Position numbers and translations under genes: made by a program. The notes under the pieces are model-generated. The model was not told where the DNA came from. It worked only from the letters and a program-made list of their open reading frames with translations, and did not search any database. Of a stretch of DNA of 64,000 nucleotides, positions 10,893 through 47,871 are shown piece by piece (position 1 is the first letter of the stretch; every line of letters starts with the position of its first letter). This DNA is from an uncultured Gammaproteobacteria bacterium (GTDB lineage Bacteria > Patescibacteriota > Microgenomatia > Levybacterales > UBA12049): contig CAZCYO010000002.1 of the NCBI GenBank assembly GCA_964503265.1, positions 194,604 through 258,603 on the forward strand. The letters run 5' to 3'.

Positions 10893-10908
10893 TACTCTTC
10901 ACTTCACT

Positions 10909-23356: not shown

Positions 23357-24844
23357 TTATCTTTTCTCGACAGGGAGAGAGAAAAAGAAGGTTGAGCCAC
23401 TTCCCTTTTCACTTTCGACCCAAATTTTCCCGTGATGACGTCTGATAATTTCTTTAGAAATGTAGAGTCCCATGCCAAAACCTGGAAATGTTTTTTCTTT
23501 ATCGTCAGCGACTTGGTACAATCTATCGAAAATCTTATTCTGTTGTTCTTTCGCAATCCCAATCCCATGATCTGCCACGCTGACAATAACTTCGTCTTTA
23601 TGTTTCGTTAAACGAATTGTTATCGCACCCGTCCCGACAGAATATTTGATCGCATTAGTAATCAAGTTTGTTACTACTTGATAGATTCTGAATCTATCTG
23701 CCTTCACGTCTGTCGGTACTGTTTTGACAAGCACCAGTCTATTTCCAGCTGACGCTTGGAGCTCGTCTACTGTCTCACTGAGTAGTTCGTCAAAGCGAAA
23801 TTTTTCCATTGAAAACGTTAACTTTCCTGTTTGAATTCGTGAAACATCAAGTAAATCATTGACCAGTTCTTGTAAGCGCTCAGTTTGGGTTTTGATACGT
23901 GTGACAATCGTAGTAACTCGAGCATCCTTCATGGATGCTGTTCGTAGCTGTAAAGAATCTATGTAGAGTTTCATACTCGTTATTGGAGTTTTAAGTTCAT
24001 GTGATGCCATATTTACGAAATCATCTTTGCGTTTTTCGAGTTCTTTTTGGGCGGTGATATCTGTGATGATCGAAGCTGCAGCGACGATCTCTCCTCGCCT
24101 GTTTTGAATAGGTGTCGCATTAACCGTAACATATATTTTTTTCTTATCTTTTCGTTCAATCGTGAACTCTTTACGAAGCACAGGCTTGCCACTTGTTACT
24201 GCTTGAAAGACTGGAGATTGAGATGGAGAAACAACTTTCTCATCGATAGTACTTTTTATGTCATACTGCTGTCTCCCCATTAAAAATCCGATCGGAATTT
24301 TCGATCCAATGATCTCCTCAAGTCTTTTATTTGCCTGTACTACTTTCCCCTCATTATCTGTGATAATCACACCCACAGGCAGCTGCTGAATGATGGCTTC
24401 AAGGCGGCGGCGACCATTTGACTCGCGCTCAATTAATCCGTCAATCGTCTGTTTTAGCCATCCGATGATCAGTGCTAAGAAAAAATAAATCGCACTTAAG
24501 ATAACAGTCGTATCGATCCCACTCGCAAGCTGATTTCCTTCGTACTTCCGGCTGTAAATAATATAAAAATAATATGCAATCGTAATCGCGACTGTCACAA
24601 ATCCACCGAGTATTCCTGCACGAAATGCAAAATACATAATCTGTGGAATAAAAAAGAAAATTGCAGCCAGTCCAATACTATTTGGGTCATGTGCGACTGA
24701 ATAGGAGTACCACTCAAGCAGAACAATCGTTATCCCAGGTAAAAGAACTGCAAACCAATATGGATAGCGTTTATCCCCTAAGTGAGCGATAGGGTTAAGA
24801 AAAATATATACTTTTTTTATCATGGGTAATGGGCATTTTAACAC
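23357..24844 (-). CDS. Sensor histidine kinase (N-terminal multi-TM sensor, PAS-like, HisKA, HATPase_c)
   Basis: MASHELKTPITSM (H-box) and …VADHGIGIAKEQQNKIFDRLYQV…GFGMGLYISKEI (N/G boxes). Possible start M8 at 24823. Confidence 0.85.
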   Translation of the reverse strand: MLKCPLPMIKKVYIFLNPIAHLGDKRYPYWFAVLLPGITIVLLEWYSYSVAHDPNSIGLAAIFFFIPQIMYFAFRAGILGGFVTVAITIAYYFYIIYSRKYEGNQLASGIDTTVILSAIYFFLALIIGWLKQTIDGLIERESNGRRRLEAIIQQLPVGVIITDNEGKVVQANKRLEEIIGSKIPIGFLMGRQQYDIKSTIDEKVVSPSQSPVFQAVTSGKPVLRKEFTIERKDKKKIYVTVNATPIQNRRGEIVAAASIITDITAQKELEKRKDDFVNMASHELKTPITSMKLYIDSLQLRTASMKDARVTTIVTRIKTQTERLQELVNDLLDVSRIQTGKLTFSMEKFRFDELLSETVDELQASAGNRLVLVKTVPTDVKADRFRIYQVVTNLITNAIKYSVGTGAITIRLTKHKDEVIVSVADHGIGIAKEQQNKIFDRLYQVADDKEKTFPGFGMGLYISKEIIRRHHGKIWVESEKGSGSTFFFSLPVEKR

Positions 24845-25065
24845 AGAATAATTAACTACTAGTAAGAGTAGTTATCAAAGTATCCCTGTTGGAAGAAAGA
24901 AAATAAAAAGAACATCATCCTATAGCTTTAATTTCTCTCTCTGAACAGGTATAATGCATTCACATTTTCAACTCTTAAGCATTCGCGCTTTTATGAGTTA
25001 AAAACGTATTATAATTTTCGCACATTTACAAAATTCTCCGATGTAATCGGAGTTAGTTACGAAGA

Positions 25066-25133
25066 TCTCCATCCCTGGTGGCATAGTGTGTATTACGCTT
25101 AGTACACAGTGTGCCACCCAAGAGGGATGGAAC
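25066..25133 (+). promoter_or_regulatory. Long imperfect inverted repeat in the leader of GC-rich ORF 25155..25603
   Basis: ccatccctggtggcatagtgtgtattacgcttagtacacagtgtgccacccaagagggatgg: outer arms ccatccct/agggatgg and ggtggca/tgccacc plus imperfect inner arms; ends 10 nt before the RBS aaggagg. Confidence 0.4.
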
Positions 25134-25154
25134 GAAGAAGAAAGGAGGCCATAG

Positions 25155-25603
25155 TGAAAATGCCGAACGGCTACGAAGCGTTTCTCGCTGTCATGGAAGT
25201 CTTAATCGCATTCAATCATGAATTGAGGCGACGGAACATTCCGCCAGAGAACACTCTTCCACATCTTAATCCACGTGGATCGCAGAATGAATCAGGGATA
25301 CTCCTTGAGGTGCTTGATGACGGTAACACCGTTCTCATAACCGAGTGGGGATCTGTACGCATTCTTGAACACCCGGAACTCACACTGACTCAGAAAATCC
25401 AGATACGTGAGATCGTGATGAATCGTCTTGGTGCGAATCCGCATCACACAGATGACTCATCTCGAGCAGCTCTCTACCGTCTCTCCCAACTGGAAGACGG
25501 CAGGCCTCTGCCACAATACCTGAAACGGTACGAGAAGCGTAACCCATCAGTCCTGAGCGAGGAATGGGAACGGCTTCTCACGTTCTACTTATTACTACCA
25601 TAA
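25155..25603 (+). CDS. Hypothetical protein (GC-rich), ~149 aa
   Basis: ORF 25109..25603; RBS aaggagg at 25143-25149 precedes GTG 25155 / ATG 25160. The first ~45 nt of the long ORF overlap a long inverted repeat and are unlikely to be coding. Confidence 0.5.
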
Positions 25604-25663
25604 GGAAACCTACTACGTGAGCATGCGCTCACGTATCGTGTTCCATATACAGGAGAACGTAAC

Positions 25664-26074
25664 ATGACTGGCGGACAGATCACGCCCCCTCATCGTCCGG
25701 ATGTTCACATCGTTGGCCCGAATAACACGATACTGCAAGTAGTTCGGCCTCTCCGTCCCGTCACGGGTCAGGAGATCATGAACGCTCTACGCAGTATCCG
25801 GATGCAGGGCACACGCTACATCGCACGGCAAGTCTCCCCGCGAAACGGCATACCGTATTTTCAGATCGGCCGCCAAGGTGAACAGGTGCAGCAGCACTGC
25901 ATCGTTCGGGCCGGAGAAGATTTCACCGAAACCGCAATCGCCGCGACTGAAACATACACGACGTTCGCCCTGGGCGAACACGTCTGGGGTAACACCCAGG
26001 TCCGCAAGCGGGATGCCTATCGAGGGTGGATTAGCGCCACCTGCGAACAGTTGTATCTCCATCTTCCGAAGTAG
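25664..26074 (+). CDS. Hypothetical protein (GC-rich), 136 aa
   Basis: RBS caggag upstream; no recognisable domain. Confidence 0.5.
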   Translation: MTGGQITPPHRPDVHIVGPNNTILQVVRPLRPVTGQEIMNALRSIRMQGTRYIARQVSPRNGIPYFQIGRQGEQVQQHCIVRAGEDFTETAIAATETYTTFALGEHVWGNTQVRKRDAYRGWISATCEQLYLHLPK

Positions 26075-26102
26075 GAAGACGAGACTAAAAAGGAGTAACG
26101 TC

Positions 26103-26480
26103 ATGCCTGGAGTTCAAATCCGCACGAATACATCACAGTACCAGGAGCTGAGTGAGCGAGAACGACTCGATATAGCCACTGACATCTGTGGCACGATTGT
26201 AGGCGAACTCGATCTCTTGGAGGAGAGCGAAAGTGTAGCCGTATCCTGGACAGCCCCTTTTGAGGGAGCCAGTTCGATGAACGAAGTCGACTTCACTGTC
26301 GAAATTGAGTTCTCGAAACGCTACAAAAAGAAGCACATCAAGAGCCTAGCTCGTACAGTCGCTCAAGAGCTCAGCCGCTACACCTGTGTTCCAGCTGGAT
26401 CGTCGATCGGAGTCTGGATCAAGACTCCCTACCGGTACTACTGGTATCAAACCCAGAAATCTACCGAGGACCCTTCGTAA
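26103..26480 (+). CDS. Hypothetical protein (GC-rich), paralog of 33319..33708
   Basis: RBS aaaaggag then ATG 26103 (MPGVQIRTNT…). Shares the block …VAVSWTAPFEGASSMNEVDFTVEIEF… with …VLVSWASPFDEESSHNMPSFYITVKLVVEI… of the 33319 gene. Confidence 0.55.
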   Translation: MPGVQIRTNTSQYQELSERERLDIATDICGTIVGELDLLEESESVAVSWTAPFEGASSMNEVDFTVEIEFSKRYKKKHIKSLARTVAQELSRYTCVPAGSSIGVWIKTPYRYYWYQTQKSTEDPS

Positions 26481-26595
26481 CAACTGACACGTGCGAAATC
26501 GGCACTGTGTGCTTCATGAAATTGAGAGTAAATCTCTTCTTCATGAGGTCACAGTGCCTTTTTTGTGGTAAAAAAATGTATTCCTAAGGTCAATT

Positions 26596-26619
26596 TGTCA
26601 TTCTCACGAAAGTGAGAAT
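26596..26619. repeat. Family palindrome
   Basis: tgtcattctcacgaaagtgagaat. Confidence 0.75.
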
Positions 26620-26687
26620 CTATTAGACTATTCCTATGACAATTACTTATATGAGAGTCTGTTATATGTTAAGGAATTCTCTAAGAG

Positions 26688-26714
26688 ATTCTCAGTCAAG
26701 CTGAGAATGACAAT
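26688..26714. repeat. Family palindrome
   Basis: attctcagtcaagctgagaatgacaat. Confidence 0.75.
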
Positions 26715-26739
26715 AGTGAATATCTAATCCTTCTTTTTC

Positions 26740-28173
26740 TCAAAAATTCCCCCAGAGTACCTGATTTGTGACTTCGTGATGATAGAGAATTTCTGATGAT
26801 TTAATCACTGTCCCAAGCTCTCTGGGTGATCTATCGGCGGCTGCTTGCTTATAGGCAGCATATTTTTCTTTATTCTGAGAACCGAGTAGCTTCTCGATGA
26901 AGTCACTGGATTTAAATAATTTAATGGCATCATACAGCGTCCCTGGAAGAAACCTGATGCGATCTCGTTTTTCTTCATTTTTCGTCAGTGGAGTTCCCTC
27001 GATGCCAGTTTTTAAAATCGTATACATCACGAGGTATGGATTCGCATCTGGAGCGACCGATCTGACTTCGATTCTGGCACTTCGTTCATTTGCGACCGGA
27101 ATTCTGATCATCGAACCACGGTCAATCGCTGAGACTTTAATTTGATTCGGCGCCTCAAAGTGTGGATCGAGTCGACGATACGCATTTACACTACTATTAA
27201 GAATGAGACAAATTTCAGGCGCGTGATTAAGCAGTCGTGTAATCATATCCCAGGCGGATTTAGAGAGGCCATCCTGCCCTTTCGCGTCATAAAACATATT
27301 TTTGCCGTTTTTTGAAAGTGAAACATTCGTGTGCATGCCAGAACCGTTAATACCGCTCACTGGTTTGGGCAGAAATGTCGCTGTCATACCCATGGAGTTC
27401 GCGACTTGGCGACAGACGAGTTTATACAGCTGAATTTTATCGGCTGCACGCTTCATATCTGCATAAGTGAAGTTCATCTCGAACTGTGAGGGCGCGACCT
27501 CTGGGTGATCTTTTTCATTACCAAACCCCATGGCACGCTGCGCTTCGGCCGAGGCATCGATAAAGCGGCGAAGTTTATCTAGTGGAAGTGAATGATAGTA
27601 GCCACCCGTCGAGATCAGTTCAAATCCCTTCCCCTCTGTAAAGATCTGCTCCGCATTCACTCCGTCGACTAAAAATCCCTCAATTTCAGCCGAAGCATAC
27701 GCTGTAATACCTGACTTCTTTTTCAACGCTGCTGAATACTCCATGAGTTGACCTCGAAAATCTGACATATAGGCTGTGCGGTCACGATTTAGCACGTTCG
27801 CAAAAAGAATGACTTTTCCGGGTCCGAAGATATCTGAAGGGAGCCAGTAAATACTCGTCCAGTCTAGATCAAGACGAAGATCTGATTCTGACTGCTGGGT
27901 AAAGCCACGAATCGATGAACCGTCAAAGGTCAGATTTTCGAGGTTATCGAGGAGAAATTTCTTATCATAATCAAGCATGTGAAACCTGCCTTCGATATCT
28001 GTGAAGCACACAGTGACCGCTTTAATACGCTTTTCCAAAATGAGGTAATCAGTATATTCTTTCTGAAGTTGTATTGGATCTTCCGTCTCTGCCCGCAGTC
28101 GAGCCTTTGTGTTCATTATTTCGAGTGTATCGTACGGAATTTCCAGGAATGTTTTTAATTTATTTTCTTCCAT
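26740..28173 (-). CDS. glnA: Glutamine synthetase family protein (GlnA-like, ~477 aa)
   Basis: GS catalytic-domain blocks (…SGMHTNVSLSKNGKNMFYD…, …FGPGKVILFANV…, …RIPVANERSARIEVRSVAPDANPYL…). Confidence 0.75.
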   Translation of the reverse strand: MEENKLKTFLEIPYDTLEIMNTKARLRAETEDPIQLQKEYTDYLILEKRIKAVTVCFTDIEGRFHMLDYDKKFLLDNLENLTFDGSSIRGFTQQSESDLRLDLDWTSIYWLPSDIFGPGKVILFANVLNRDRTAYMSDFRGQLMEYSAALKKKSGITAYASAEIEGFLVDGVNAEQIFTEGKGFELISTGGYYHSLPLDKLRRFIDASAEAQRAMGFGNEKDHPEVAPSQFEMNFTYADMKRAADKIQLYKLVCRQVANSMGMTATFLPKPVSGINGSGMHTNVSLSKNGKNMFYDAKGQDGLSKSAWDMITRLLNHAPEICLILNSSVNAYRRLDPHFEAPNQIKVSAIDRGSMIRIPVANERSARIEVRSVAPDANPYLVMYTILKTGIEGTPLTKNEEKRDRIRFLPGTLYDAIKLFKSSDFIEKLLGSQNKEKYAAYKQAAADRSPRELGTVIKSSEILYHHEVTNQVLWGNF

Positions 28174-28315
28174 ATTTATATTAATTTAATAATTATTTAA
28201 TATAAAAATAATATAAATTAATTTATACATTGTTGCAATAGATCAAACTGGAGCAAGATTGGGGATGGTTGAGAAATACATTCTCAACCATCCCCGAGAA
28301 AGATACAAATGAATG

Positions 28316-28753
28316 CTATTGGACAGGTGCCTGTGGACTCTGCCGTTCAGCTTCGAGTAGCATGAATTTGCGACGAAGATCGTCCAGCTCCTGAGCGCGA
28401 GTGCGAGTGCCAAATGACACTTGCTCATGACGCAGGAGATATCGTATCTCCACTTCGAGGTATTGGATCGCCAGCACGTACTCACCTCGCTCGAGTGCCG
28501 AGATGACAGATTCGTAATAGTCGATCCGCTGCTGCCAGATATCTACATCCTTTTGAGAGTTACTCACAGCACCTCGAACGACCCAACGTTCGATACGCCA
28601 TCCGAGAGTCCACCAATGGAATACTTCAGCAATCTCCGTTAGGAGACCTTGGTTGTACCTCAGTTTTCGAGTGGCCTCCTCGAGTTCCAACTCTCCCTGG
28701 TGCTTTTCGTTCCGCAAGAGTTCAAGCGTCCGACTAACGACATCCGATGACAT
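28316..28753 (-). CDS. Hypothetical helical protein (GC-rich), 145 aa
   Basis: Intact ORF. The terminator module (29050-29110) of the upstream paralog cassette lies further upstream. Confidence 0.45.
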   Translation of the reverse strand: MSSDVVSRTLELLRNEKHQGELELEEATRKLRYNQGLLTEIAEVFHWWTLGWRIERWVVRGAVSNSQKDVDIWQQRIDYYESVISALERGEYVLAIQYLEVEIRYLLRHEQVSFGTRTRAQELDDLRRKFMLLEAERQSPQAPVQ

Positions 28754-29049
28754 CTCGCCCTCTCCTTTCTGAGAGATACTCCGTGTTTTCCTACGATTCT
28801 AGGGTAGATGATTTCAGCTGGATAAGCTTTTTGCTCCTCCTTTGGTTAGTTTCACATCATCACAGGTGATGACTTCCTAGGTATTTTGAAAAAATACACA
28901 CGAAGCCATCACCTATTACCCAGTACATTCATTCTGTATCAATGTGCTAAAAATCTCTCGACGACTAGAGACAGCGTTCTAGTCTAAAGCGTCAAAAAGA
29001 ATGAGGGAAGTTTAGCACAAACTGAAGGAAATTAGGGAAAAAGACTGCT

Positions 29050-29110
29050 AAAACGCGAAACGCCCCGGGGTAAGCCGGGGCGTATTTCGCACGAAATGTT
29101 AGTTACGGAA
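29050..29110 (-). terminator. Duplicated terminator module, copy 1 (two hairpins + T-tract on minus strand)
   Basis: Minus-strand: stop, catttcgtgcgaaat (hairpin), cgccccggcttaccccggggcg (8-bp GC hairpin), tttcgcgtttt. The 61-nt copy differs from 30257-30317 at 3 positions. Confidence 0.75.
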
Positions 29111-29941
29111 TTTGTACGCCATTTTGTCTGCCTCTTCTGCGGGCAGAGTAGCGGAGCTGATGTACTCCCTCCTGGTGACGATCCAGCCGTCCAGAATCTC
29201 AGTGACCCTGTAGACAATGATTCGCCAAGAAGTCGAACCTTTCTCTGCAAGCAAGAGACTGTTACCCGTGAAGATGATATCTCCTACTTTCACAGGAACG
29301 AGCGTGTGGTGCAAGAAGAGATCATAGCGATCTCGTTGCGTGCGATACACATAGGGCGAGACTCGCTCGCCTGACAAGTCGCTGCTGAGCAGATAGATAT
29401 TCCCCGCAGACGGAGGAAACTCATCGACTGTCCAGAGGGCATTATGCCCACCTGAAGTCTTCTTGATCTGGAAGAACAGTTCCCGAGGGAACTGTTCCTG
29501 CGGAACGATCTCCGAATCGCGGAGGGCTGCGATAGCATCCGCCACGACGCGGTTCCTGTCTGAGTGAGTTGTAAATCGACGAATATAGCTCAGTTTATGC
29601 ACCATATCCTCGATACTGCAGAGATGCGTCGCCCACCATGCACACGTGTAGCGACCACTCACGCGAGTCTTCTCATGCCCAGCTGACAAACCATCTGTCG
29701 AATATTCGGGAAGCCCGATATCCTTCAGAACGGTGTTGAGAGCCTGGACCGATTCGAGCTGCGAATAGCCAAAACCCGTTATGGTCATCGTACCAGTCAA
29801 GTTTTGGCCGAGTGTGCGCTCGACACCCTCAAGGTACGCCTTTTCACTGGCCCCGCGCAACACTCCAACAAAAAGATTGCCGTCCCGAAAGGACTCAGGC
29901 GTCATGTGTTCGAACCGTGATGGCATAATGGTCGTAGTCAT
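29099..29941 (-). CDS. Hypothetical protein; C-terminal domain paralogous to 30310..30717 and 30731..31183
   Basis: ORF 29099..29971; RBS ggaggaagg precedes M11 (MTTTIMPSRF…) at 29941. C-terminal …HNALWTVDEFPPSAG… matches …LLWTDDDFPSEV… and …VLWTIEDFPDSL… of the tandem paralogs. Confidence 0.6.
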   Translation of the reverse strand: MTTTIMPSRFEHMTPESFRDGNLFVGVLRGASEKAYLEGVERTLGQNLTGTMTITGFGYSQLESVQALNTVLKDIGLPEYSTDGLSAGHEKTRVSGRYTCAWWATHLCSIEDMVHKLSYIRRFTTHSDRNRVVADAIAALRDSEIVPQEQFPRELFFQIKKTSGGHNALWTVDEFPPSAGNIYLLSSDLSGERVSPYVYRTQRDRYDLFLHHTLVPVKVGDIIFTGNSLLLAEKGSTSWRIIVYRVTEILDGWIVTRREYISSATLPAEEADKMAYKFRN

Positions 29942-30017
29942 GCCTTCCTCCACATGTAAGTGAAACAACAATCAGGGCAACCATACAGGAAAGAAATCTT
30001 TCTTTCATCTATGGCAA

Positions 30018-30125
30018 CCCCGATATAAATCCGTAACTTATTAACGTGCCTGCCCGCCTATAATCGCTCTTTAAGCCGCTCCCTGATATACATCGGGAAA
30101 AGGCGAAAAGGAAGATATAGTGGGC
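30018..30125 (-). repeat. Conserved ~108-nt leader repeat, copy 1 (upstream of 29099..29941)
   Basis: ccccgatataaatccgtaacttattaacgtgcctgcccgcctataatcgctctttaagccgctccctgatatacatcgggaaaaggcgaaaaggaagatatagtgggc; about 90% identical to 31220-31329. Confidence 0.85.
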
Positions 30126-30256
30126 TATAAAAAATGACTATGTTCCCTTAGAAAGCTTTCAAATGAAGCTAAAAAGAGAATATATTCGAGGAAAGTATAA
30201 CAAAAAATCGCACTGAAGTCAAACTATAGGATTATTTACGTGGGTTGTCTAGCCCT

Positions 30257-30317
30257 AAAACGCGAAACGCCCCGGGGTAAGCCGGGGCGTGATTCGCACG
30301 AAATGATAGTTACGGAA
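30257..30317 (-). terminator. Duplicated terminator module, copy 2
   Basis: Same architecture as 29050-29110, directly after the stop of 30310..30717. Confidence 0.75.
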
Positions 30318-30717
30318 ATAGTACTTGCTTTGCCAGACGTCCTGGCAAGACCGAGACCGGTACATGGATCGGGACCAGAGCGACCCAGCCAATCTTCTTG
30401 AACAATCCCACGACTATGTAGCCGGGGATTTCGTAGGTGTTATTCCGCCTCCTGGCACGAGTACTTTCAGCGGTGAAAACAACAAAGTTCTTCCGAAGTG
30501 GCACTAGGTGGATACTACGTGACACGTCAGATAGATCCCGCTTTGTGCGAAGATGTGGGGGATCGATAAAAATCCCCTTCGAATAGTCGAGGATGAGCAA
30601 CTTTGTGCCTATGACTTCGCTGGGAAAATCATCATCCGTCCAGAGGAGCGGTTGACCTTTCCAACTGACGAGTGTCTGGAGGTAGCGATTGTTTACGAGA
30701 TAGTCTTGAAACGCCAT
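30310..30717 (-). CDS. Hypothetical protein, paralog family member (135 aa)
   Basis: MAFQDYLVNNRYLQTLVSWKGQPLLWTDDDFPSEV… aligns with the adjacent 150-aa gene; 13-nt gap suggests co-transcription. Confidence 0.6.
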   Translation of the reverse strand: MAFQDYLVNNRYLQTLVSWKGQPLLWTDDDFPSEVIGTKLLILDYSKGIFIDPPHLRTKRDLSDVSRSIHLVPLRKNFVVFTAESTRARRRNNTYEIPGYIVVGLFKKIGWVALVPIHVPVSVLPGRLAKQVLFP

Positions 30718-30730
30718 GGTATTCCTCCTC

Positions 30731-31183
30731 TTAGGCCAAACAAACCTGCTCTACCAGATAGTCTGGCAAGGCAGAGAGTTTGACATGAGACGCAGCCAGA
30801 GCAATCCAGCCACGCGCTTTAGTAACGTACTTCACATAGTGACATGTGACGAAGTATTCCCCGTTCCGAAGGATCGCTTTACGACTCACTGTAGTGAGGA
30901 TGATGTGTCCTCCACGAACGCGAACGAGTGAAAGGGTGCGTGAAACATCATAGGGATCGACTTCGGTACGAAGTGGTCGCGGACGAACCAGCTTGCCCTC
31001 ATCATACGCGAATATCTGCAAGCCGGTTTCCGGGAGTAGCGAGTCAGGAAAGTCTTCAATCGTCCAGAGGACAGGTAATCCTGAATCACTAACTAGCGTC
31101 TGGAAGTATCGTTTGTCAACGAGCTGATCTACGAGAGACATGGTGCCTCCTCCACAATCTATTGGTCTCCTATCAGAGACCAC
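30731..31183 (-). CDS. Hypothetical protein, paralog family member (150 aa)
   Basis: …LVDQLVDKRYFQTLVSDSGLPVLWTIEDFPDSL…; RBS ggaggagg; preceded by the conserved ~108-nt leader repeat. Confidence 0.6.
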   Translation of the reverse strand: MVSDRRPIDCGGGTMSLVDQLVDKRYFQTLVSDSGLPVLWTIEDFPDSLLPETGLQIFAYDEGKLVRPRPLRTEVDPYDVSRTLSLVRVRGGHIILTTVSRKAILRNGEYFVTCHYVKYVTKARGWIALAASHVKLSALPDYLVEQVCLA

Positions 31184-31219
31184 CAGAGAAAAAATAACTA
31201 ATTACGCTCTCTCTGGTGG

Positions 31220-31329
31220 CCCTGATAAAAATTCCGTAACTTATTAACGTGCTTGCCCGCCTATAATCACTCTTTAAGCCGCTCTCCGAAAATACATCGG
31301 GAAAAGGCGAAAAGGAAGATATGGTGGGC
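31220..31329 (-). repeat. Conserved ~108-nt leader repeat, copy 2 (upstream of 30731..31183)
   Basis: ccctgataaaaattccgtaacttattaacgtgcttgcccgcctataatcactctttaagccgctctccgaaaatacatcgggaaaaggcgaaaaggaagatatggtgggc. Confidence 0.85.
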
Positions 31330-31434
31330 GAGAAAAGAACTATATCCCTTTTATCGTTATCACATAAAACGAGAAAGAATATATAATTCAGAGTGAAGTA
31401 TAGCAAAATGAAGGTAAATTATACAACTATGGGG

Positions 31435-32163
31435 TTATCTTTGGATAACTTTTCGAAGTTTCTCTACTTCCTCACCCGTCAATTCCCTATGCTCCCCTTC
31501 TGGAAGGTCGCCAAGTTCGACTGGGCCGAATTTCACTCTCGCTAAATTAATGAGTTTGATCCCTGTCACCAGACACATTCGTCTGACCTGTCTATTTCTT
31601 CCTTCATGAATCGTCAGTTTAAGAACCGTCTCATCTTTTGATGCAGTAACTACGCTCACTTCGGCCGGGAGCGTCTTTCCATCATTCAGATCTACTCCAT
31701 CTCGTAGTGTCTCAAGTTGGTCTTTTGAAACCATGCCTGCGATCGTCAATCGGTATACTTTCGGCACATGGTATTTCGGATGCGTCAGCTGGTGAGTGAG
31801 TTCTCCATCATCTGTCAGAAGAATGATCCCCGTCGTATCTTTATCAAGTCTTCCCACAGGATAAATCGCTCGTGTGGTCTGGATATTCGATGTCACATCT
31901 TCTCTCCCCAGTTCATCAGAGGTCGTCGAGATAACATTTTTGGGTTTATGCAGCAAATAGTAGACAAATAGTCCCTCTGTTCGTGCTTCGCCGTTAAGCG
32001 TTATCGTATCAATTGCCGGATCAATTTTCGTTTCAGGCGTAGTTACATTCGTCCCGTTAATGGTCAGAGCATTTTCTTTAAGAAATCTTCTGGCGTTACG
32101 CCTAGAACTCAGACCAGTCTCTGAAAGATATTTATCGACCCGTATGCTGCTGTTCTTTTTCAT
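31435..32163 (-). CDS. Pseudouridine synthase, RsuA/RluB family (S4 domain + catalytic domain)
   Basis: ORF 31435..32205; probable start MKKNSSIRVDKYL at 32163. S4 RNA-binding N-terminus; catalytic …GRLDKDTTGIILLTDDGELTHQLTHPKYHVPKVY…. Confidence 0.85.
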   Translation of the reverse strand: MKKNSSIRVDKYLSETGLSSRRNARRFLKENALTINGTNVTTPETKIDPAIDTITLNGEARTEGLFVYYLLHKPKNVISTTSDELGREDVTSNIQTTRAIYPVGRLDKDTTGIILLTDDGELTHQLTHPKYHVPKVYRLTIAGMVSKDQLETLRDGVDLNDGKTLPAEVSVVTASKDETVLKLTIHEGRNRQVRRMCLVTGIKLINLARVKFGPVELGDLPEGEHRELTGEEVEKLRKVIQR

Positions 32164-32335
32164 GTCGCTATTATAGCAAGCACGCAACGTAAATCCCATA
32201 GTCAAAGATTGTGCTATAATTTAGCGCGTAACACAGTCGATTTGTACGTTTGTTCTTTAACATTACCTCCTTGTTAGGCCTTTGGATATGACGTGTGTCA
32301 TATCTAAAAACCCTGATCGTTAAAGGAGGTTCTCG

Positions 32336-33031
32336 ATGCTCCGTAAGATTCAGCCGAGGCATGTGACGACTGTGGCAGTACTGGTATTCATCCTCTTCGT
32401 CATCAACGTTGGAATTGCGTATCGCGAAGATCAGCAGGCGAAGAAAGCCTTCTGTCCTCGCCCACCAATTCTGTCGATGAACGGATCAAGCGTATATGTC
32501 GTCCCAGAAGTCGATGTGGTCCATAACCCACAGCAGACAAATACGCTCTATCTCAAGGACGAGAAGAACAACCAGAGGACGCTTGCTCGGTTTACCGGCA
32601 TCCGCTTCTCCGCTCCAAGTTGGTCACCGACTGGAAAGTTCATCGTCTTCGTGGCTACGTATGTCGGAGAGAATACTCGCAGTGAAATCTGGCGAGTTAA
32701 TCCCGATGGCACAGGCTTACAATCCTTAGTCGGCTTCGAAGACACGTTCCAAAATCCCAACCACCCTCAGGTCTCGCCTGACGGAAGGTATGTGATTCTT
32801 GATGCCTATTCAGGCATTATGGAACTTGATGTCGAGACGCTTGCAGTAGCATGGGTGGTCGTATCCAAAACCGAGCAACTCGATGCCTCTGACTGGTACT
32901 ACTTCACCAACCCGACATACATCGGCACTGACGGTGCAATCTCGTACACATATTCTGGAGCCCACGAATCTGGCTTCGGCTATACCGACGAAAAAGGCGA
33001 GAACTACAACGTAACACCGTGGTGTAAATAA
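32336..33031 (+). CDS. Membrane-anchored TolB/PD40-like beta-propeller repeat protein
   Basis: N-terminal TM (VAVLVFILFVINVGIAY); repeats …SWSPTGKFIVF…, …PQVSPDGRYVIL… typical of PD40/WD40-like TolB blades. GC-rich. Confidence 0.55.
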   Translation: MLRKIQPRHVTTVAVLVFILFVINVGIAYREDQQAKKAFCPRPPILSMNGSSVYVVPEVDVVHNPQQTNTLYLKDEKNNQRTLARFTGIRFSAPSWSPTGKFIVFVATYVGENTRSEIWRVNPDGTGLQSLVGFEDTFQNPNHPQVSPDGRYVILDAYSGIMELDVETLAVAWVVVSKTEQLDASDWYYFTNPTYIGTDGAISYTYSGAHESGFGYTDEKGENYNVTPWCK

Positions 33032-33318
33032 CCACGACTATCAGGACGGGAGATGTGAAGAATATGGGTAACCTATCTTCACATCTCCCACCCCCTCACC
33101 ACATAAGCAACTAATCTTTTCCTGACAAATTCCAGACGAAATAGTCCTATAGCTTTACTTTTGTGGCTATTTTTGATACCATCACAGTATACTGATTATC
33201 AGTATGAACATTAACAATTTTTGAAAGTGACTATTTGGCCGTGCCAGAAGAGACATAACACACGTTATTTCCCTCCTGGCAACTGTGCCAAATAGATCTC
33301 ATACAGGAGTAAGACCGC

Positions 33319-33708
33319 ATGAAGGCGCTCGTGACGATCCTTTCTTCCGATTTCTACTTCGAAAAAACAGGACAGCAAGGTCGCCATGACTTAGCATATG
33401 CGCTAAGTGAGCGAATCGATTCGGAAATTAACCGACGGACACGAACAGGACATGATGTCCTTGTATCCTGGGCCAGTCCATTCGACGAAGAGTCGTCTCA
33501 TAATATGCCTTCGTTCTACATCACCGTCAAACTGGTCGTCGAAATCAATGGCGATCAGATCCTGAGCATCGTTTCAGAGATCAAGCGTGCCTTCGAGATC
33601 TCTCCTGCGATTCAGTACGGATCTATCTTCATCATCGAGATCATGCCCCATGGCTCGATCGACTCAAGTACCTTCGAGCTCGTGAAGGAGTATATGGAGG
33701 TTCGATGA
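33319..33708 (+). CDS. Hypothetical protein, paralog of 26103..26480
   Basis: 129 aa; shared VSW(A/T)(S/A)PF(D/E)… block. Its stop overlaps the start of the next gene by 4 nt (ATGA). Confidence 0.55.
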   Translation: MKALVTILSSDFYFEKTGQQGRHDLAYALSERIDSEINRRTRTGHDVLVSWASPFDEESSHNMPSFYITVKLVVEINGDQILSIVSEIKRAFEISPAIQYGSIFIIEIMPHGSIDSSTFELVKEYMEVR

Positions 33709-33995
33709 ACGAACTCGCGAGGGATCTCATTCTGATCTTCGGCCCGATGGCCGCATCTGCTCTCGTAGCAGTCGTCTACTGGAGGTGGCCGAGTCTGGAT
33801 ACGGACGATTCATTCCCTTACATCGCTCTTTGCTTCATCGCAGCGTCGTTCGTCCTTCCATGGCTTGGCTTCATGTGGCTGTCTAATCTCCACTGGATCA
33901 TAAGATTTATGTTAAGCGTAACATGCGCTTGTATAAGTTTTGTGATTCTCTTGGTGCTAACAGTGCGCCTCCCGGCCAGAAGTCCGACCGAGTAA
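33705..33995 (+). CDS. Small membrane protein (3 predicted TM), translationally coupled to 33319
   Basis: 96 aa, hydrophobic segments; ATGA start/stop overlap. Confidence 0.5.
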   Translation: MNELARDLILIFGPMAASALVAVVYWRWPSLDTDDSFPYIALCFIAASFVLPWLGFMWLSNLHWIIRFMLSVTCACISFVILLVLTVRLPARSPTE

Positions 33996-34264
33996 CACTT
34001 TCAAAAATTGAACACCACAAGCCCTGAAGGGCATAAAGGAGCGTGTGCGCTATCGTTGCATGAAAGCGCAACGAACTGAGCCCACTCTCCCACTCTTCAG
34101 GGCTCTTTTCGTTACCCCCAAAAAAAATTACAAAGTAATAGTTCCTTAGTATATACAAGAAAGCACCGGTTGGTAGCGACGTACCAACAGTATGCTTCTT
34201 GTCCCGCAAGTGGGAAGCCGAAGTCGTACTACAACACGCCGCACCAAGTTCCGGTGCTTAAAGA

Positions 34265-34903
34265 TTATGTTCGAGAGAGTATGTTCAGGATGAGATCCAT
34301 AGCCTCACGATGAAACTGAATAGCTTGGCTTCGCCAAGCCAGGCCAGCCGATGAATGACTAAGAAGTCCCTCTGACTTCTCTAGTAGTCCACGTTCGCTG
34401 ATAGCCCTGCGCATATCGGGATGTAACTCCCTCATCATCCTGAGCGTACTGGTGTCTGCCCTGAGCGTTTTGAGCAGCCACTGATCGAGTTTCGACCACC
34501 AGGTCTCCAGATCATACGAAGGCTGCGTATCGATCCAGGCAGCAAGCTCGGTTCCGGTTAGTTCCCAGTCGTCAAACTGTCCCCAACCGGAAACATACTC
34601 CCTGGCAAATGCCTCTGCATAGTATTCCCACGGGAATACAAAATAGAGAGGCACATCGCTACGCCGTTTCAAGTCACCTCCCACGAAGAAATGATACAAG
34701 ATGCTTTGTGCGAGAGTGAACGATCCAGTTCCAGTAGAGCCCCATTCGAATTGGAAGGCCCATGTAGGGATCTTCGTAAGTGGGGCGTGATTGACAGTAA
34801 CCACCCGTGAGTTATCACGTAAGACAAACCTACCTCGATAGACTACCGTGAGATCAAATTCAGACACGGGATCCTCCTTATGAGTATCTGGTACTACCTC
34901 CAT
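34265..34903 (-). CDS. Hypothetical protein (GC-rich), 212 aa
   Basis: Intact ORF, Trp-rich; no recognisable domain. Confidence 0.45.
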   Translation of the reverse strand: MEVVPDTHKEDPVSEFDLTVVYRGRFVLRDNSRVVTVNHAPLTKIPTWAFQFEWGSTGTGSFTLAQSILYHFFVGGDLKRRSDVPLYFVFPWEYYAEAFAREYVSGWGQFDDWELTGTELAAWIDTQPSYDLETWWSKLDQWLLKTLRADTSTLRMMRELHPDMRRAISERGLLEKSEGLLSHSSAGLAWRSQAIQFHREAMDLILNILSRT

Positions 34904-35101
34904 ATGGGCAGCTTGTAATAGACTGATATCTACTAAAAGCTACCAATGTGAATCACTGTGAAAAGAGCGACATGCGAACCGATGAGATTATATCGTATCT
35001 GCGAGCACGAATTCAACTATGGGATATGATTTAGTACGTAACTAATGTCGAAGTCCACATGTGGAGTATCTCAACCGCGATTTTTAGCTTATCCAGTTTC
35101 A

Positions 35102-35527
35102 TTATTTCCCGACAGATTCGATGGTGAGGATACCGATGGTCGGATATTTGTCATCAGTTTTAGGTTGAAATGTACCAGTAATAGAGACGTTTTCATTCAT
35201 CGGAAGTTGACTCATATGCGCATAGGTCGGGTCAGAATCAACGACAGCATAGTATTTCCCGTCTACTCCTTTAAGCCCAATCGCACATTCCATACTGATA
35301 GGTCCACTCGTATTTTTATGGGGCAGACACATAACTTTTCCTTTTATGGTTACTTTTTCACCAGGCGGCAGTGTCGCAGTCGCATCAATAGGCTGGTCAC
35401 TTGGAACCATTCGATCAGAATATGCTGACGGAGCTTTTTTTTGCAGTGAGAAAAATGCGAGGCCACCGATGAAAGCGAAGAGCAGAATAACAAACAGTAG
35501 AAGTAACCGAGATTTAGTATTACTCAT
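35102..35527 (-). CDS. Signal-anchored exported protein of unknown function
   Basis: ORF 35102..35620; likely start MSNTKSRLLLLFVILLFAFIGG (signal anchor) at 35527. Confidence 0.5.
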   Translation of the reverse strand: MSNTKSRLLLLFVILLFAFIGGLAFFSLQKKAPSAYSDRMVPSDQPIDATATLPPGEKVTIKGKVMCLPHKNTSGPISMECAIGLKGVDGKYYAVVDSDPTYAHMSQLPMNENVSITGTFQPKTDDKYPTIGILTIESVGK

Positions 35528-35697
35528 ATCCACATCTAGCATAACACAAGTGAAATATGCGAATAAATACCCGTACCTATTGTTTTTCGTAGCTTGTATG
35601 GTAGTTTTGACCTCACCCATAGCACTAGTAGAGTAAATTGCTTTCTCTATGAAACACGATTGATTAATCCCCGAAAAGTTACTACACTACCCATACT

Positions 35698-36099
35698 ATG
35701 TATTATTCATACAAATGTCCCTACTGCGGACGAGTTTTTTACACATACGATACAAATAAAGAACGGGCATCACGCACACTTTATTTCACGATCAAACAGC
35801 ACCTCATCGACTATAACGAAGATCATAAAGAGTATGTCTTAGATGACGGAGAAGAAGCAGATAGTGATCAGATTTATGAAGAAATGGTAGAAAGCAACAT
35901 CGCACCCCCAGGAGGATATAAAGCCACGCTGACCAGTCTCAATCAACCTGAAACACACTCTTCACCTTCATCCTACTCAAGTGTAGGAGCGATCATTTTT
36001 CTCGTCGTCCTCATCGGTCTACTCATCGCCATATTCGTCTTTTTCCCAAATCTCGTTACCTCATTCATAGCATCTCTCTCAGCTCCGTTTCAAAACTAA
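35698..36099 (+). CDS. Zinc-ribbon (CPYCG) membrane protein
   Basis: N-terminal YKCPYCGRVF zinc-ribbon-like motif; C-terminal TM helix; intrinsic terminator 36164-36208 downstream. Confidence 0.5.
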   Translation: MYYSYKCPYCGRVFYTYDTNKERASRTLYFTIKQHLIDYNEDHKEYVLDDGEEADSDQIYEEMVESNIAPPGGYKATLTSLNQPETHSSPSSYSSVGAIIFLVVLIGLLIAIFVFFPNLVTSFIASLSAPFQN

Positions 36100-36163
36100 T
36101 CCCTTTTGAAAATCCCTCCTTAAAGAATTTTTATCTTGAGAACATACTACATTCTAAGTAAAT

Positions 36164-36208
36164 CGGGGTTCTCCAGTTTTATATACTGAAGAACCCCGTA
36201 CGTTTTTT
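36164..36208 (+). terminator. Intrinsic terminator of 35698..36099
   Basis: cggggttctccagttttatatactgaagaaccccg + tacgttttttt. Confidence 0.65.
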
Positions 36209-36210
36209 TG

Positions 36211-36552
36211 TTACTCTGCTGACCACGAGTTCACGAACTGGGCAAGCGATTTCGCCCGTCGATTCCTCTCTTCAGCACACTCGCGGCCATCCCCACAGTG
36301 AATACCATGCCGATCCTTTAACGACAAATGAAGGCAGACACGAGTATCGGCTGAAATCACGTCTGCCATGCGTTTGGCATCAGCAAGTGATTCGAGTAGA
36401 TAGAACCTACGAGAGGGAGAGTACTTAGAGTTTTTGCACCGCTCCCCTTCTGTGTTTTCGTGTTCAGGCAGCGAGTAATCATTCAATCGCAAATCCTGAC
36501 CACACTCTCGACAATGTCCCATGACGACGAATGCAAGTTCTTCCATGCTCAT
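36211..36552 (-). CDS. Hypothetical Cys-rich protein (GC-rich), 113 aa
   Basis: Cys pairs (CRECGQ…, …HCGDGREC) suggest a metal-binding module. Confidence 0.4.
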   Translation of the reverse strand: MSMEELAFVVMGHCRECGQDLRLNDYSLPEHENTEGERCKNSKYSPSRRFYLLESLADAKRMADVISADTRVCLHLSLKDRHGIHCGDGRECAEERNRRAKSLAQFVNSWSAE

Positions 36553-36633
36553 CCTCCTGTTGAAATGACTACTCCGAAACTTTCGGATTTCACGGATTAT
36601 AGCAAATATGATGGAATATAAACTATGAAGAAT

Positions 36634-40821: not shown

Positions 40822-41199
40822 TTAGGCTGGGACTAGACTAGGGTTAGGTACGTGGTGTTTGCGCTGGACATCCGCCTGTTTTTGCTTGGGTTTACCCCGA
40901 AGTTTGTACAGAACGGCGATCTTGTAGATAGATGTTGGGTCGTCGACGACCATCAGTGCGACTACGTTAGCTGCGACGAGATCTAAGAGATAGATACTCA
41001 TCGCAAGTGGTGGTATGTTGATGTGACTTCGACTGAGATAGGATACTTCAGCGATTACCTCCTTCTTAGTCAGTGGACCATACTTCAGAGATGTGACGAT
41101 GAGATCGTTTACCTCCTCCTTCTCATGTCCACCGAGATGGACCATGATCATTCCCATAGCTTTCACGATGTGAACGATCAGCCACGTAAATAGATCCAT
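40822..41199 (-). CDS. Hypothetical protein, 125 aa
   Basis: Intact ORF, moderately GC-rich; no motif. Confidence 0.35.
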   Translation of the reverse strand: MDLFTWLIVHIVKAMGMIMVHLGGHEKEEVNDLIVTSLKYGPLTKKEVIAEVSYLSRSHINIPPLAMSIYLLDLVAANVVALMVVDDPTSIYKIAVLYKLRGKPKQKQADVQRKHHVPNPSLVPA

Positions 41200-44873: not shown

Positions 44874-45147
44874 GTAGTTTTACCCTTTTAGTCCCATAAT
44901 GATCGACTTCAGGCATGGGTTTTGCTATACTCCATTCGTAATTTAGTAATCGAACATATTTGCTTGTTTCTTTACTACCTACACAATCTACTCTTTTGCA
45001 CATTTATAATTTGTCCCGATTACATCGGGAATTGCGGATACTAGTACGTGGATAGCACTCTGAACAGGAATAGTTCATGTGTAGGGTGCTATCCATGAGG
45101 ATAGTCAGTGAGTCCTCTGACACGATTCAGAGAGAAAGGATATTCCC

Positions 45148-47523: not shown

Positions 47524-47871
47524 TTAAGACATAGTCTCTTCAGTCGTCTCAGATGGGAGAGGAAGTGTTCCGGAGACGTATCCCGCGATCGTTTTTTTCC
47601 ACGGTTCGTCTGGCCACCTAAGTTCACTGCCAAGAGTGGCAGCAAACGTTCCCCAGATGTGGGGCCAAGCATCAGGAGAACAGCTTTGTGCTGTGAGTAA
47701 CCGAGCAGCGAGAATTTTCTCAAGCTCAGGATACCTTCCTTTAGGAAGTTCTCCCAAGACTGCTTCGATCACCGGAGCTGGATTGCGAGCCATGCGATGT
47801 CTCCCTATCCTATCCAAACCATAGTTGCCATAGAGCAACCAGCGCTTATTTGCGCGGAGTGTAGTATACAT
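47524..47871 (-). CDS. Hypothetical protein (GC-rich), 115 aa
   Basis: Intact ORF; Trp/Arg-rich; no motif. Confidence 0.4.
   Translation of the reverse strand: MYTTLRANKRWLLYGNYGLDRIGRHRMARNPAPVIEAVLGELPKGRYPELEKILAARLLTAQSCSPDAWPHIWGTFAATLGSELRWPDEPWKKTIAGYVSGTLPLPSETTEETMS

Follow-up and report, generated by a model that had tools for sequence, protein, structure and literature searches.

Why does an AT-rich bacterial chromosome carry many small, GC-rich genes scattered between its core genes, and are these genes recent arrivals or long-standing residents? The question is raised by a 64-kb stretch of contig CAZCYO010000002.1 (the window; GC 42.5%), in which positions 25100-36560 form the range under study. 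A preliminary description had listed GC-rich open reading frames (ORFs) in this range and beyond, and held that they do not stem from one recent bulk transfer, so that either their acquisition is old or they form a distinct class of genes. We found that they do form a class, recognizable by composition, codon usage and translation initiation, and that non-coding flanks are conserved around divergent ORFs. On balance, these ORFs are probably coherent, lineage-specific, long-resident and fast-evolving accessory cassettes in a chromosome of the Patescibacteria (Candidate Phyla Radiation, CPR), with a GC-rich composition that would be actively maintained. The features are collected in Table 1.

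We compared 22 GC-rich ORFs with 44 core ORFs over the whole window. GC content at the first, second and third codon positions (GC1/GC2/GC3) was 0.583/0.403/0.556 in the GC-rich set versus 0.507/0.369/0.345 in the core set, and gene-level GC3 fell into two groups (Mann-Whitney p=1.3e-10 for the difference in GC3). Every ORF of the earlier list belongs to the GC-rich group, with GC3 values of 0.50 (25109/25154-25603), 0.54 (28316-28753), 0.58 (32336-33031), 0.59 (33319-33708), 0.51 (34265-34903), 0.50 (36211-36552), 0.63 (45148-45636), 0.53 (49867-50691) and 0.59 (58620-59240); 25664-26074, 26103-26480, 33705-33995, 47524-47871 and 52214-52480 are likewise GC-rich at the gene level. Three further GC-rich ORFs in range, which that list had not contained, are 29099-29941, 30310-30717 and 30731-31141 (GC3 0.48-0.61). 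Codon usage separated the two sets as well: AGA accounted for 3 of 273 Arg codons (1%) in the GC-rich set and for 29% in core genes, and the shares of AAG (58% versus 18%), ATC (68% versus 33%), TTC (73% versus 29%) and TTA (5% versus 20%) shifted too. This signature holds ORF by ORF in about 11 separate islets. The products had been described as rich in Arg, Ala, Gly and Trp; in fact, Trp (x1.8), Arg (x1.5) and Gln (x1.4) are raised and Lys is lowered (x0.56), but Ala and Gly are not enriched.

The codon positions of the GC-rich set also fit together. Under the regressions for codon-position GC of Muto and Osawa and of Lawrence and Ochman, the observed 58.3/40.3/55.6 is close to the expectation for a genome of 51.4% GC (58.5/40.6/54.7), and the core genes fit the equilibrium for 40.7% GC. 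The signature of amelioration, in which GC3 moves towards the host value ahead of GC1 and GC2, is therefore absent. The spacers between the genes are AT-rich throughout (GC 0.37-0.48; length-weighted 0.38-0.43), as had been stated in the preliminary description. Its use of these spacers as an argument for long residence fails, however, because nearly all bacteria have intergenic DNA that is AT-richer than their coding DNA.

The GC-rich ORFs are real genes. Since stop codons are AT-rich, non-coding GC-rich DNA yields longer chance ORFs, and overlapping antisense ORFs are listed here (e.g. 25787-26104 and 33907-34209); chance ORFs of this kind, or a chimeric assembly, are nevertheless effectively refuted already. 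Every GC-rich ORF is a single open frame that fills its own segment, which shuffled sequences achieved in 0-38 of 500 trials per ORF and in 0 of 500 for each of the seven longest. The order GC1 > GC3 > GC2 is that of coding periodicity, paralogs and distant homologs can be aligned as proteins, ribosome-binding sites and ATGs stand at the correct spacing, and one product yields a confident AlphaFold2 (AF2) fold. Furthermore, two independent assemblies, L009 (Logan) and L090 (European Nucleotide Archive, ENA), are 99-100% identical to the window (L090 over 31473-35131) and cover junctions at which AT-rich core genes meet GC-rich ORFs. Reproduction of these junctions in both assemblies rules out a chimeric assembly. 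Identical copies of window proteins occur on the NCBI contig and in the Logan and ENA assemblies.

Three features that the preliminary description had missed discriminate best between the two kinds of gene: the near absence of AGA, the conserved non-coding flanks around divergent ORFs, and a split between genes led by a Shine-Dalgarno (SD) sequence and leaderless genes. An SD was scored at a duplex energy of -6 kcal/mol or lower with ACCUCCUUA, 5-11 nt upstream of the start codon. A canonical GGAGG/AGGAG SD precedes a start in 20/22 GC-rich ORFs; at internal ATGs of the same ORFs, 12% meet the -6 threshold and 1-3% meet -8. Only 6/44 core genes have an SD (start of the longest ORF), and many have a TATAAT-like box just 5' of the ATG. 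A count over the window gave an SD in 9/15 GC-rich and 10/54 other ORFs, and a leaderless signature in 0/15 and 16/54, respectively. The same division was found on other Patescibacteria contigs, where an SD preceded 10/14 high-GC3 ORFs versus 14/234 of the rest (odds ratio 39, p=8e-9), and the leaderless signature was present in 0/14 and 68/234. When the window and related contigs were pooled, 36/280 low-GC3 ORFs, but none of the 29 high-GC3 ORFs, had a -10 box that ended exactly 6 nt ahead of the start; 32 further low-GC3 ORFs carried it at 7-9 nt, over a background of about 3-4 per position. A -10 box placed 6 nt before the start in genes without an SD matches the signature predicted for leaderless mRNAs, and many core genes carry it. 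Conversely, when ORFs were chosen by SD alone, SD-led ORFs had the higher GC3 in 16/21 loci. As judged from sequence, initiation mode co-segregates in the window with composition and with core versus orphan status, and its split by composition recurs on the other Patescibacteria contigs. We found no report of a coupling of composition with initiation mode in the literature searched. Some Parcubacteria are reported to be without an anti-SD motif (PMC9297842). Genomes with mixed leaderless and SD-led genes have been described in Actinobacteria and Deinococcus and correspond to 'group C' of GeneMarkS-2 (PMC6028130). As in group C genomes, a sizeable share of genes here has a -10 box 6-9 nt before the start and a minority has a canonical SD; unlike in those genomes, initiation mode separates along with composition and with core or orphan status.

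The unrelated 80-kb contig L095 (39% GC) contains runs of Pfam-less, SD-led ORFs at 4136-6554 and 10001-11937, with GC3 0.10-0.20 above that of their neighbours. The ribosome-binding region of one of them, GAAAGGAGTAACGTC-ATG, agrees at 14/15 positions with the 15 nt that precede the 26103 start in the window.

How old are these genes? L001 is a relative whose core genes are syntenic with those of the window and whose core proteins are 51-91% identical. It is without most of the window's GC-rich ORFs and carries GC-rich, SD-led orphans of its own. The presence/absence comparison with relatives that had been proposed earlier gave a divided answer, since three loci do have positional counterparts in diverged genomes: a pair of tandem units encoding a protein family that we call family A (counterpart in L092), a gene with PD40 repeats (L152) and the pair 33319-33995 (L001). 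At these loci the flanks (promoter, leader or terminator) are 73-90% identical around proteins that are 24-52% identical. On L092, as in the window, the family-A gene follows immediately downstream of rluB, with an alignable promoter and leader; RluB is 67% identical and the family-A proteins are 27% identical, and the L092 gene has a GC3 of 0.65 and 1 AGA among 20 Arg codons. The PD40 protein is 52% identical to its L152 ortholog at a proportion of synonymous differences (pS) of 0.70, which is saturated, and GC3 is 0.58 and 0.62 in the window and L152, respectively; identity over the whole alignment is 77%, the start of the terminator is conserved and the leader is clearly conserved by eye (not separately quantified). 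The pair corresponds to L001 9219-9767, which is GC-rich like the window copy; identity is 24% for the membrane protein, and no alignment is possible for its partner. A GC3 of 0.58-0.67 is retained in positional orthologs with saturated synonymous sites (pS about 0.70), whereas core genes at the same divergence (pS 0.68-0.73) have a GC3 of about 0.35-0.42. The non-synonymous divergence (dN) was 0.39-0.72 in cassettes versus 0.07-0.26 in core genes at similar synonymous divergence (dS). Positional orthology, saturation and retained GC3 together indicate that at least some cassettes are old residents, and that their GC-richness is maintained and stationary. The family-A homologs on L091-L093 show the low-AGA pattern too, as do the GC-rich orphans of L001. 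In addition, family-A GC3 follows that of its local neighbours with a steady offset in four contexts: 0.47 beside 0.33 on L095, 0.58 beside 0.38 in the window, 0.65 beside 0.47 on L092 and 0.67 beside 0.41-0.52 on L093/L094.

These results bear on the usual explanation for compositionally odd genes, namely recent horizontal gene transfer (HGT), here of several independent, unameliorated islets from unrelated GC-richer donors that use SD sequences. The atypical composition and codon use, the missing amelioration signal, an initiation mode unlike that of core genes, and the absence of most islets from the syntenic region of L001, which has different GC-rich orphans, are all as it predicts. It does not account for positional orthologs with saturated synonymous sites and conserved regulatory flanks, nor for host-type promoters, a genome-specific leader motif common to unrelated islets and a single codon signature over about 11 separate islets. 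No donor homologs emerged from 5.8 billion clustered or 1.84 billion representative proteins, and the search for integrases, tRNA genes and flanking direct repeats was negative. We therefore regard recent HGT as quite improbable. The earlier statement that the islets are not one recent bulk transfer, and are either old acquisitions or a distinct class, agrees with the positional orthologs, the host-type promoters and the shared codon signature and leader motif; that interpretation is partly supported, in that its conclusion holds in substance although not by the argument used.

The non-coding parts of the cassettes were informative in their own right. The promoter consensus CCTATAGTTTGAyTT-N13-TGnTATAmT, made up of an upstream CCTATAG, a -35 box and an extended -10, has window sites at 30194-30230(-), 31397-31426(-), 24919-24955(+), 33146, 42586 and 47890. 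It gave 56 exact metagenome matches, on AT-rich Patescibacteria-like contigs (L096-L151), and several of these have an ATG 6-8 nt after the -10 box. The consensus is thus general in these bacteria, indicating that the cassettes use host-type promoters; CCTATAG had been considered as a cassette-specific motif and was rejected as part of this general promoter. A generic sigma-70 scan of the region gave 17 sites versus 19.3 in shuffles, without excess, so that the promoter calls rest on conservation.

We found that a 12-nt leader motif, GCACRTTWAYAA, occurs 5 times in the window versus 0.07 expected (11060, 25020, 30038(-), 31241(-) and 44998), in sense orientation 108-211 nt upstream of GC-rich ORFs, and that the five downstream ORFs encode unrelated proteins. 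The motif points to common regulation or a common leader module; it may serve as an operator or mark the mRNA 5' end. In two cases it is followed by a short hairpin (25036-25052 and about 45015-45031), whose two outermost pairs differ on both sides (by eye, unscored) in what look like compensatory changes. All islets end in strong hairpin terminators. These had been called host-like 'family palindromes', but the hairpins differ individually and a shared one exists in the two family-A units alone. Between islet 1 (the three ORFs at 25154-26480) and glnA, the 93-nt stretch after the stop codon, which contains the hairpin, folds at -40 kcal/mol; the terminator is 75% identical to L001 over 84 nt and is apparently bidirectional. 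As for the paralogy proposed between 26103-26480 and 33319-33708, pairwise comparison gave E=2e-5, and the relationship is weak, with 21% identity.

Family A shows most clearly how the flanks and the proteins have parted. The two units form a tandem duplication with a period of about 1205 bp, in which the non-coding flanks are 92-93% identical and the proteins 27-41%. Unit 2 consists of two single-domain ORFs, whereas unit 1 and L092 have one two-domain ORF. Conservation of the promoter, leader and terminator extends to five additional loci, from other samples, with protein identities of 24-35%. The leader box reads GCACGTTAATAA..TTACGGA. A 24-bp hairpin of the 5' untranslated region (5'-UTR), upstream of the SD and present also in unit 2 and on L091-L093, has compensatory changes at 8 pairs over five sequences and may be a cis-regulatory RNA. 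The terminator, CGCCCCGG..CCGGGGCG-TTTCGCGTTTTAG, has compensatory C/G swaps, seen by eye in the alignment. The AF2 model of 29099-29941 (predicted local distance difference test, pLDDT, 78) has an alpha/beta N-domain and a beta-rich C-domain; a Foldseek search with this model against PDB and BFVD gave no match at E<=0.001, suggesting that the fold may be new. The element AGTTACGGAATTT, which flanks both units, was considered as a terminal inverted repeat of a transposon and dropped (4 hits versus 2.2 expected in the window).

The PD40 gene and the pair 33319-33995 extend this pattern. The PD40 leader is predicted to fold into a three-tier stem-loop, both in the window (-31.5 kcal/mol, z=-5.1) and in L152 (-30.9 kcal/mol, z=-3.8), which matches an SD-sequestering, RNA-thermometer-like architecture. 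The protein matched the PD40 repeat marginally (22.2 bits versus a threshold of 20.9) and scored 25.7 bits against the TolB equivalog TIGR02800 (cut-off 343), far below the cut-off, indicating that it is not TolB itself; its relatives comprise the L152 homolog and weak repeat-level matches to TolB-type proteins. The element after the pair is 95 nt long and is closed by a long stem (GCCCTGAAG...CTTCAGGGC); it also has an internal hairpin and a T-tail, and it stands beside ORFs that are barely alignable between the genomes. It could be a complex terminator or a small RNA.

Table 1. Positions and properties of features in the window (SD, Shine-Dalgarno sequence; TM, transmembrane)
Feature	Position	Strand	Details
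Four-gene GC-rich cluster	8730..12510	+	GC 0.50-0.60; leader motif GCACATTAATAA at 11060-11071
PAS/HisKA histidine kinase	23357..24844	-	core, GC3 0.36, without SD; protein 75% identical to syntenic L001 gene
Host-type promoter-like element	24919..24955	+	CCTATAGCTTTAATT...TATAAT, upstream of islet 1
Leader motif, then short hairpin	25016..25052	+	TTTCGCACATTTACAA; CTCCGAT-GTA-ATCGGAG (25036-25052)
GC-rich orphan, 147-149 aa	25154..25603	+	SD AGGAGG at 25143-25148; no family match in any library
GC-rich orphan, 136 aa	25664..26074	+	SD CAGGAG
GC-rich orphan, 125 aa	26103..26480	+	SD AAGGAG; weak paralog of 33319-33708
Long hairpin terminator	26483..26562	.	between islet 1 and glnA; conserved with L001 12248-12324
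Glutamine synthetase (glnA)	26740..28173	-	core, AT-rich, without SD; protein 91% identical to L001
GC-rich orphan 28316-28753, 145 aa, with terminator	28261..28753	-	SD AAGGAGAGG; terminator hairpin 28261-28295
Family-A unit 1	29048..30132	-	terminator stem 29060-29083; ORF 29099-29941 (280 aa, two domains, SD GGAGG 29947-29951)
Unit 1 leader		-	5'-UTR hairpin ~29971-30024; leader motif GCACGTTAATAA at 30038-30049
Unit 1 promoter	30194..30230	-	CCTATAG-TTGACT-17 nt-TATACT with TG; kept in six family-A loci
Family-A unit 2	30255..31336	-	terminator 30267-30290; ORFs 30310-30717 (135 aa) and 30731-31141 (136 aa), both SD GGAGG; leader motif 31241-31252
Unit 2 promoter	31397..31426	-	TTGTAT-18 nt-TATACT, directly after rluB stop; arrangement syntenic with L092
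Pseudouridine synthase (RluB-like, rluB)	31435..32205	-	core, AT-rich; protein 67% identical to L001 and to L092 copies
PD40 gene leader	32261..32338	+	upstream CCUCCUU pairs with SD AAGGAGG (32323-32329); architecture conserved in L152 (4-100)
GC-rich ORF 32336-33031, 231 aa	32336..33089	+	N-terminal TM helix, PD40 beta-propeller repeats; terminator hairpin 33048-33089
Overlapping GC-rich orphan pair	33319..33995	+	33319-33708 (129 aa), 33705-33995 (96 aa, membrane protein); both SD-led
Structured non-coding element/terminator after pair	34018..34113	+	79% identical to L001 9119-9211
GC-rich ORF, 212 aa	34265..34903	-	partial DUF6166 match; possible alternative GTG start 34867 preceded by AAGGAGG
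GC-rich orphan 36211-36546/36552, 111-113 aa	36164..36552	-	CxxC motifs; SD CAGGAGG; terminator 36164-36198
GC-rich SD-led orphan adjoining metK	40822..41199	-	
Leader motif and GC-rich orphan ORF	44998..45636	+	GCACATTTATAA (44998-45009); ORF 45148-45636
GC-rich orphan	47524..47871	-	paralog of 52214-52480
GC-rich orphan, 274 aa	49867..50691	-	
GC-rich orphan, 88 aa	52214..52480	-	paralog of 47524-47871
GC-rich orphan, 206 aa	58620..59240	-	strong terminator
Leaderless-type -10 boxes, examples	upstream of 19057, 38804, 46305, 58504		leaderless-mRNA signature of core genes; also L001, L095, L096-L151

Almost all of the GC-rich ORFs are orphans. Pfam matched 2/22 of them versus 13/20 core ORFs scanned, and these two are the marginal PD40 repeat and a partial match of 34265-34903 to DUF6166 (36.3 bits, cut-off 27, E=6e-9, profile positions 9-55 of 93), above the gathering threshold. 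Among ten in-range ORFs, PADLOC gave nothing and NCBIfam gave nothing except weak sub-threshold matches to 32336-33031. For both family A and the DUF6166 protein, a word-index search of 5.8 billion protein clusters returned self or near-self matches alone. When 1.84 billion representative proteins were searched exhaustively with a profile, 6 distant homologs of family A emerged, and no significant match was obtained when the family-A profile was run against PDB sequences. The homology searches that had been suggested for taxonomic affinity thus pointed to no donor or outside lineage: the matches were to self or near-self, to the 6 distant homologs in like contexts, and to TolB-type repeats at a weak level.

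Could the cassettes be moron-like units left behind by a decayed prophage or mobile element? Phage morons, described by Hendrix and colleagues, are autonomous promoter-gene-terminator units of distinct composition inserted between genes. The cassettes resemble them in having their own promoter, an intrinsic terminator, a composition unlike that of their neighbours, a position between unrelated genes and an accessory or unknown function, and there are weak PHROG matches for 8730-9680 ('kinase', phrog_3043, E=8e-5) and 36211-36552 (E=1e-4). However, PHROGs gave nothing for 18/20 ORFs scanned, 36211-36552 being the only in-range ORF with a match, and no phage hallmark genes were present. We found no matches for concatenated GC-rich ORF sets in 50,697 phage genomes (tblastn), for 11/12 in-range ORFs in plasmids (tblastn; the PD40 ORF 32336-33031 left out), or for three proteins and two flank motifs in 2.9 million viral contigs. 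No integrase or transposase domains were found in the ORFs scanned, and no flanking direct repeats apart from the family-A tandem duplication. Unlike morons, the cassettes lie outside any prophage, without phage homologs found, scattered singly over 50 kb among syntenic genes of the cellular core chromosome such as glnA, rluB and the histidine kinase gene, and they appear to be old residents. An origin as phage or mobile-element remnants is, on this evidence, very improbable. The phrog_3043 match, to the first gene of the cluster 8730-12510, is the sole functional hint in that cluster. The elements TTTCGCAC and GTGCGAAA, which bracket islet 1, were considered as a mobility signature and dropped, being weakly enriched (6 versus 2.25 expected).

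The conserved flanks admit another explanation, in which they would serve as homologous recombination arms. Alleles or unrelated ORFs would then be swapped in from an external pool at an equilibrium of about 52% GC and never ameliorate; the pool could lie in other Patescibacteria or in an unsampled plasmid or phage of theirs. Flanks that are 73-93% identical around ORFs that are 24-52% identical would follow from such exchange, as would the two single-domain ORFs of unit 2 in place of the two-domain ORF of unit 1 and L092, codon-position GC that fits an outside equilibrium, and a codon signature that is uniform across islets. Some Patescibacteria loci do have 49-54% GC, and most HGT in Patescibacteria is reported to run between Patescibacteria (PMC12455944), which also counts for this explanation. 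On the other side, no GC-rich reservoir was found, and all family-A homologs lie between AT-richer flanks with the same promoter, leader and terminator. Family-A GC3 scales with that of its neighbours, which independent draws from a single pool should not produce; there were no matches in viral contigs, phages or plasmids; and the Patescibacteria loci of 49-54% GC that we examined hardly use SD sequences. We consider cassette exchange unlikely, although better placed than recent HGT.

Comparison with other known systems gave a similar picture of partial likeness. HGT and genomic islands have been reported in Patescibacteria (PMC12455944). Like genomic islets, the GC-rich set has atypical composition and codon usage, consists of orphans in variable slots between syntenic core genes, and differs in content between relatives; most in-range ORFs are unmatched at the syntenic position in L001, with family A, the PD40 gene and the pair 33319-33995 as the loci that have counterparts. 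Unlike islets, the cassettes comprise 1-4 genes without an integrase, tRNA gene or flanking direct repeat found, are GC-richer than the host, carry host-type promoters and give no amelioration signal. Their positional orthologs persist GC-rich beyond synonymous saturation, and neither mobility signatures nor a donor lineage were found. Recently acquired or mobile DNA is reportedly AT-richer than its host as a rule (Daubin et al. 2003; Rocha and Danchin 2002). Diversifying loci (capsule/O-antigen, hsdS, pherotype) share with the cassettes flanks conserved at about the core level, a divergent interior and a composition off that of the genome; the cassettes differ in being single small ORFs that are GC-rich, whereas those loci are usually AT-rich. 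Integron cassettes and clusters of attC sites lacking integrases (CALINs) similarly consist of small, mostly orphan ORFs, each followed by a palindrome, in variable content. Here, in contrast, the cassettes have their own promoters and long leaders and are scattered in both orientations, no integrase was found in the window, and the palindromes are ordinary T-tailed terminators that vary between cassettes. Accessory islets of atypical composition and moron-like units are an already known kind of element; this variant, with GC-richer, AGA-poor, SD-led cassettes, conserved flanks and persistent composition, was not found described in the literature searched.

We therefore return to long-resident, fast-evolving cassettes as the explanation that we favour. 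Each cassette, or small group of them, would be its own transcription unit, with a host-type sigma-70 promoter, a long and often structured SD-bearing leader, 1-4 small ORFs and a strong hairpin terminator. The units would occupy variable slots between syntenic AT-rich core genes that are mostly SD-less or leaderless, and their proteins would change several times faster than core proteins around conserved regulatory flanks. Their GC excess of about +0.15 to +0.25 GC3 over neighbours, with avoidance of AGA, TTA and ATA, would persist past synonymous turnover. We suggest an ancient acquisition into, or birth within, the flexible gene pool of the Patescibacteria, and a fixation bias specific to this class that would uphold the GC excess. 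The likeliest cause of such a bias would be GC-biased gene conversion at recombination-prone cassettes, which accounts for shifts at all three codon positions; local signs of recombination are the tandem duplication with near-identical flanks, a gene order for rluB and the pair that is rearranged in comparison with L001, and a strain breakpoint at 35131. Alternatively, selection tied to leadered, SD-dependent and tightly regulated expression might be responsible, and would explain the sharp boundaries at ORF edges and the extreme avoidance of AGA. Because of the diversifying pattern, the function of the cassettes is probably conditional and lies in interactions with a host cell or phage.

Several observations weigh against this interpretation. 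Equilibrium-like GC1/GC2/GC3 values and the near absence of AGA would be equally expected from a very recent import from a donor of about 52% GC. GC-biased conversion should raise the GC of the flanks too, yet these are AT-rich (0.37-0.48), and codon selection should leave GC1 and GC2 unmoved, yet both shift, and the amino-acid shift is hard to explain in that way. No counterpart was detectable in the syntenic L001 region for 10/12 in-range GC-rich ORFs, and this could be real turnover by gain and loss, not only divergence past recognition. Positional orthology rests on three loci, some of them on short contigs (0.9-1.5 kb), and the tracking of neighbour GC on four contexts. Finally, the 3' end of the 16S rRNA, with the anti-SD, lies outside the window.

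The core genes themselves place the window. Among the housekeeping genes are those for glutamine synthetase, a PAS histidine kinase, an RluB-type pseudouridine synthase, MsrA/MsrB, adenylosuccinate synthetase, MetK and a photolyase. The closest relatives of GlnA among species-representative genomes are metagenome-assembled genomes (MAGs) of Patescibacteria, with the top match at 76% identity in Ca. Levybacteria, followed by Paceibacterota, Saccharibacteria and Nomurabacteria. Scans of the whole window found no tRNA genes and no Rfam families. metK (within 40822-42424, -) has an intermediate GC3 of 0.50 with normal AGA use and adjoins the strongly SD-led orphan 40822-41199, indicating that not all GC-elevated genes belong to the orphan class.

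Further differences between genomes were noted along the range. In L001, a gene for an amidinotransferase of the dimethylarginine dimethylaminohydrolase (DDAH) family lies directly after glnA (L001 11440-12243). The window is without it and has in its place 177 nt of AT-rich DNA (26563-26739) with nested inverted repeats (26613-26635 / 26672-26694) and TGAGAAT motifs, which may be a deletion scar or a small repeat element. L090 is 99-100% identical to the window up to position 35131 and completely different beyond (L090 1-343). This breakpoint falls within ORF 35045-35428 (+) (MSKSTCGVSQ...), of which the window copy is truncated and overlapped by the opposite-strand gene 35102-35620, and the L090 version runs on as a different, longer ORF. 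The single-nucleotide polymorphisms (SNPs) that distinguish L090 from the window are confined to two GC-rich ORFs and are without exception protein-changing; they were set aside because L090 coverage is about 2x.

A broader and more tentative reading, to which we give limited credence, is that two compartments coexist in one chromosome. An AT-rich, leaderless or SD-less core would stand beside a GC-rich, AGA-poor, SD-dependent accessory regulon with motif-bearing structured leaders, and a class-specific force, be it GC-biased conversion or expression-coupled selection, would keep the composition of the regulon at a separate equilibrium. If true, this would amount to a natural experiment, inside one genome, on the determinants of bacterial GC content, and it would point to a conditional expression programme, for example for host attachment or phage attack, that is controlled through initiation mode and codon usage.

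Recent HGT is the usual label for genes of odd composition, and such genes are expected to fade to host composition. The genes described here differ in being GC-richer than the host, with host-type promoters, a distinct initiation mode and a composition that is kept after full synonymous turnover. Gene finders and HGT detectors trained on core genes would mis-handle such a class. If the pattern is genome-wide, one genome would provide a tractable setting in which to tell apart the effects of mutation bias, biased gene conversion and selection on GC content. The pattern would also define a previously unrecognized class of fast-evolving, possibly co-regulated genes in Patescibacteria, which would be candidates for interaction with host cells or phages.

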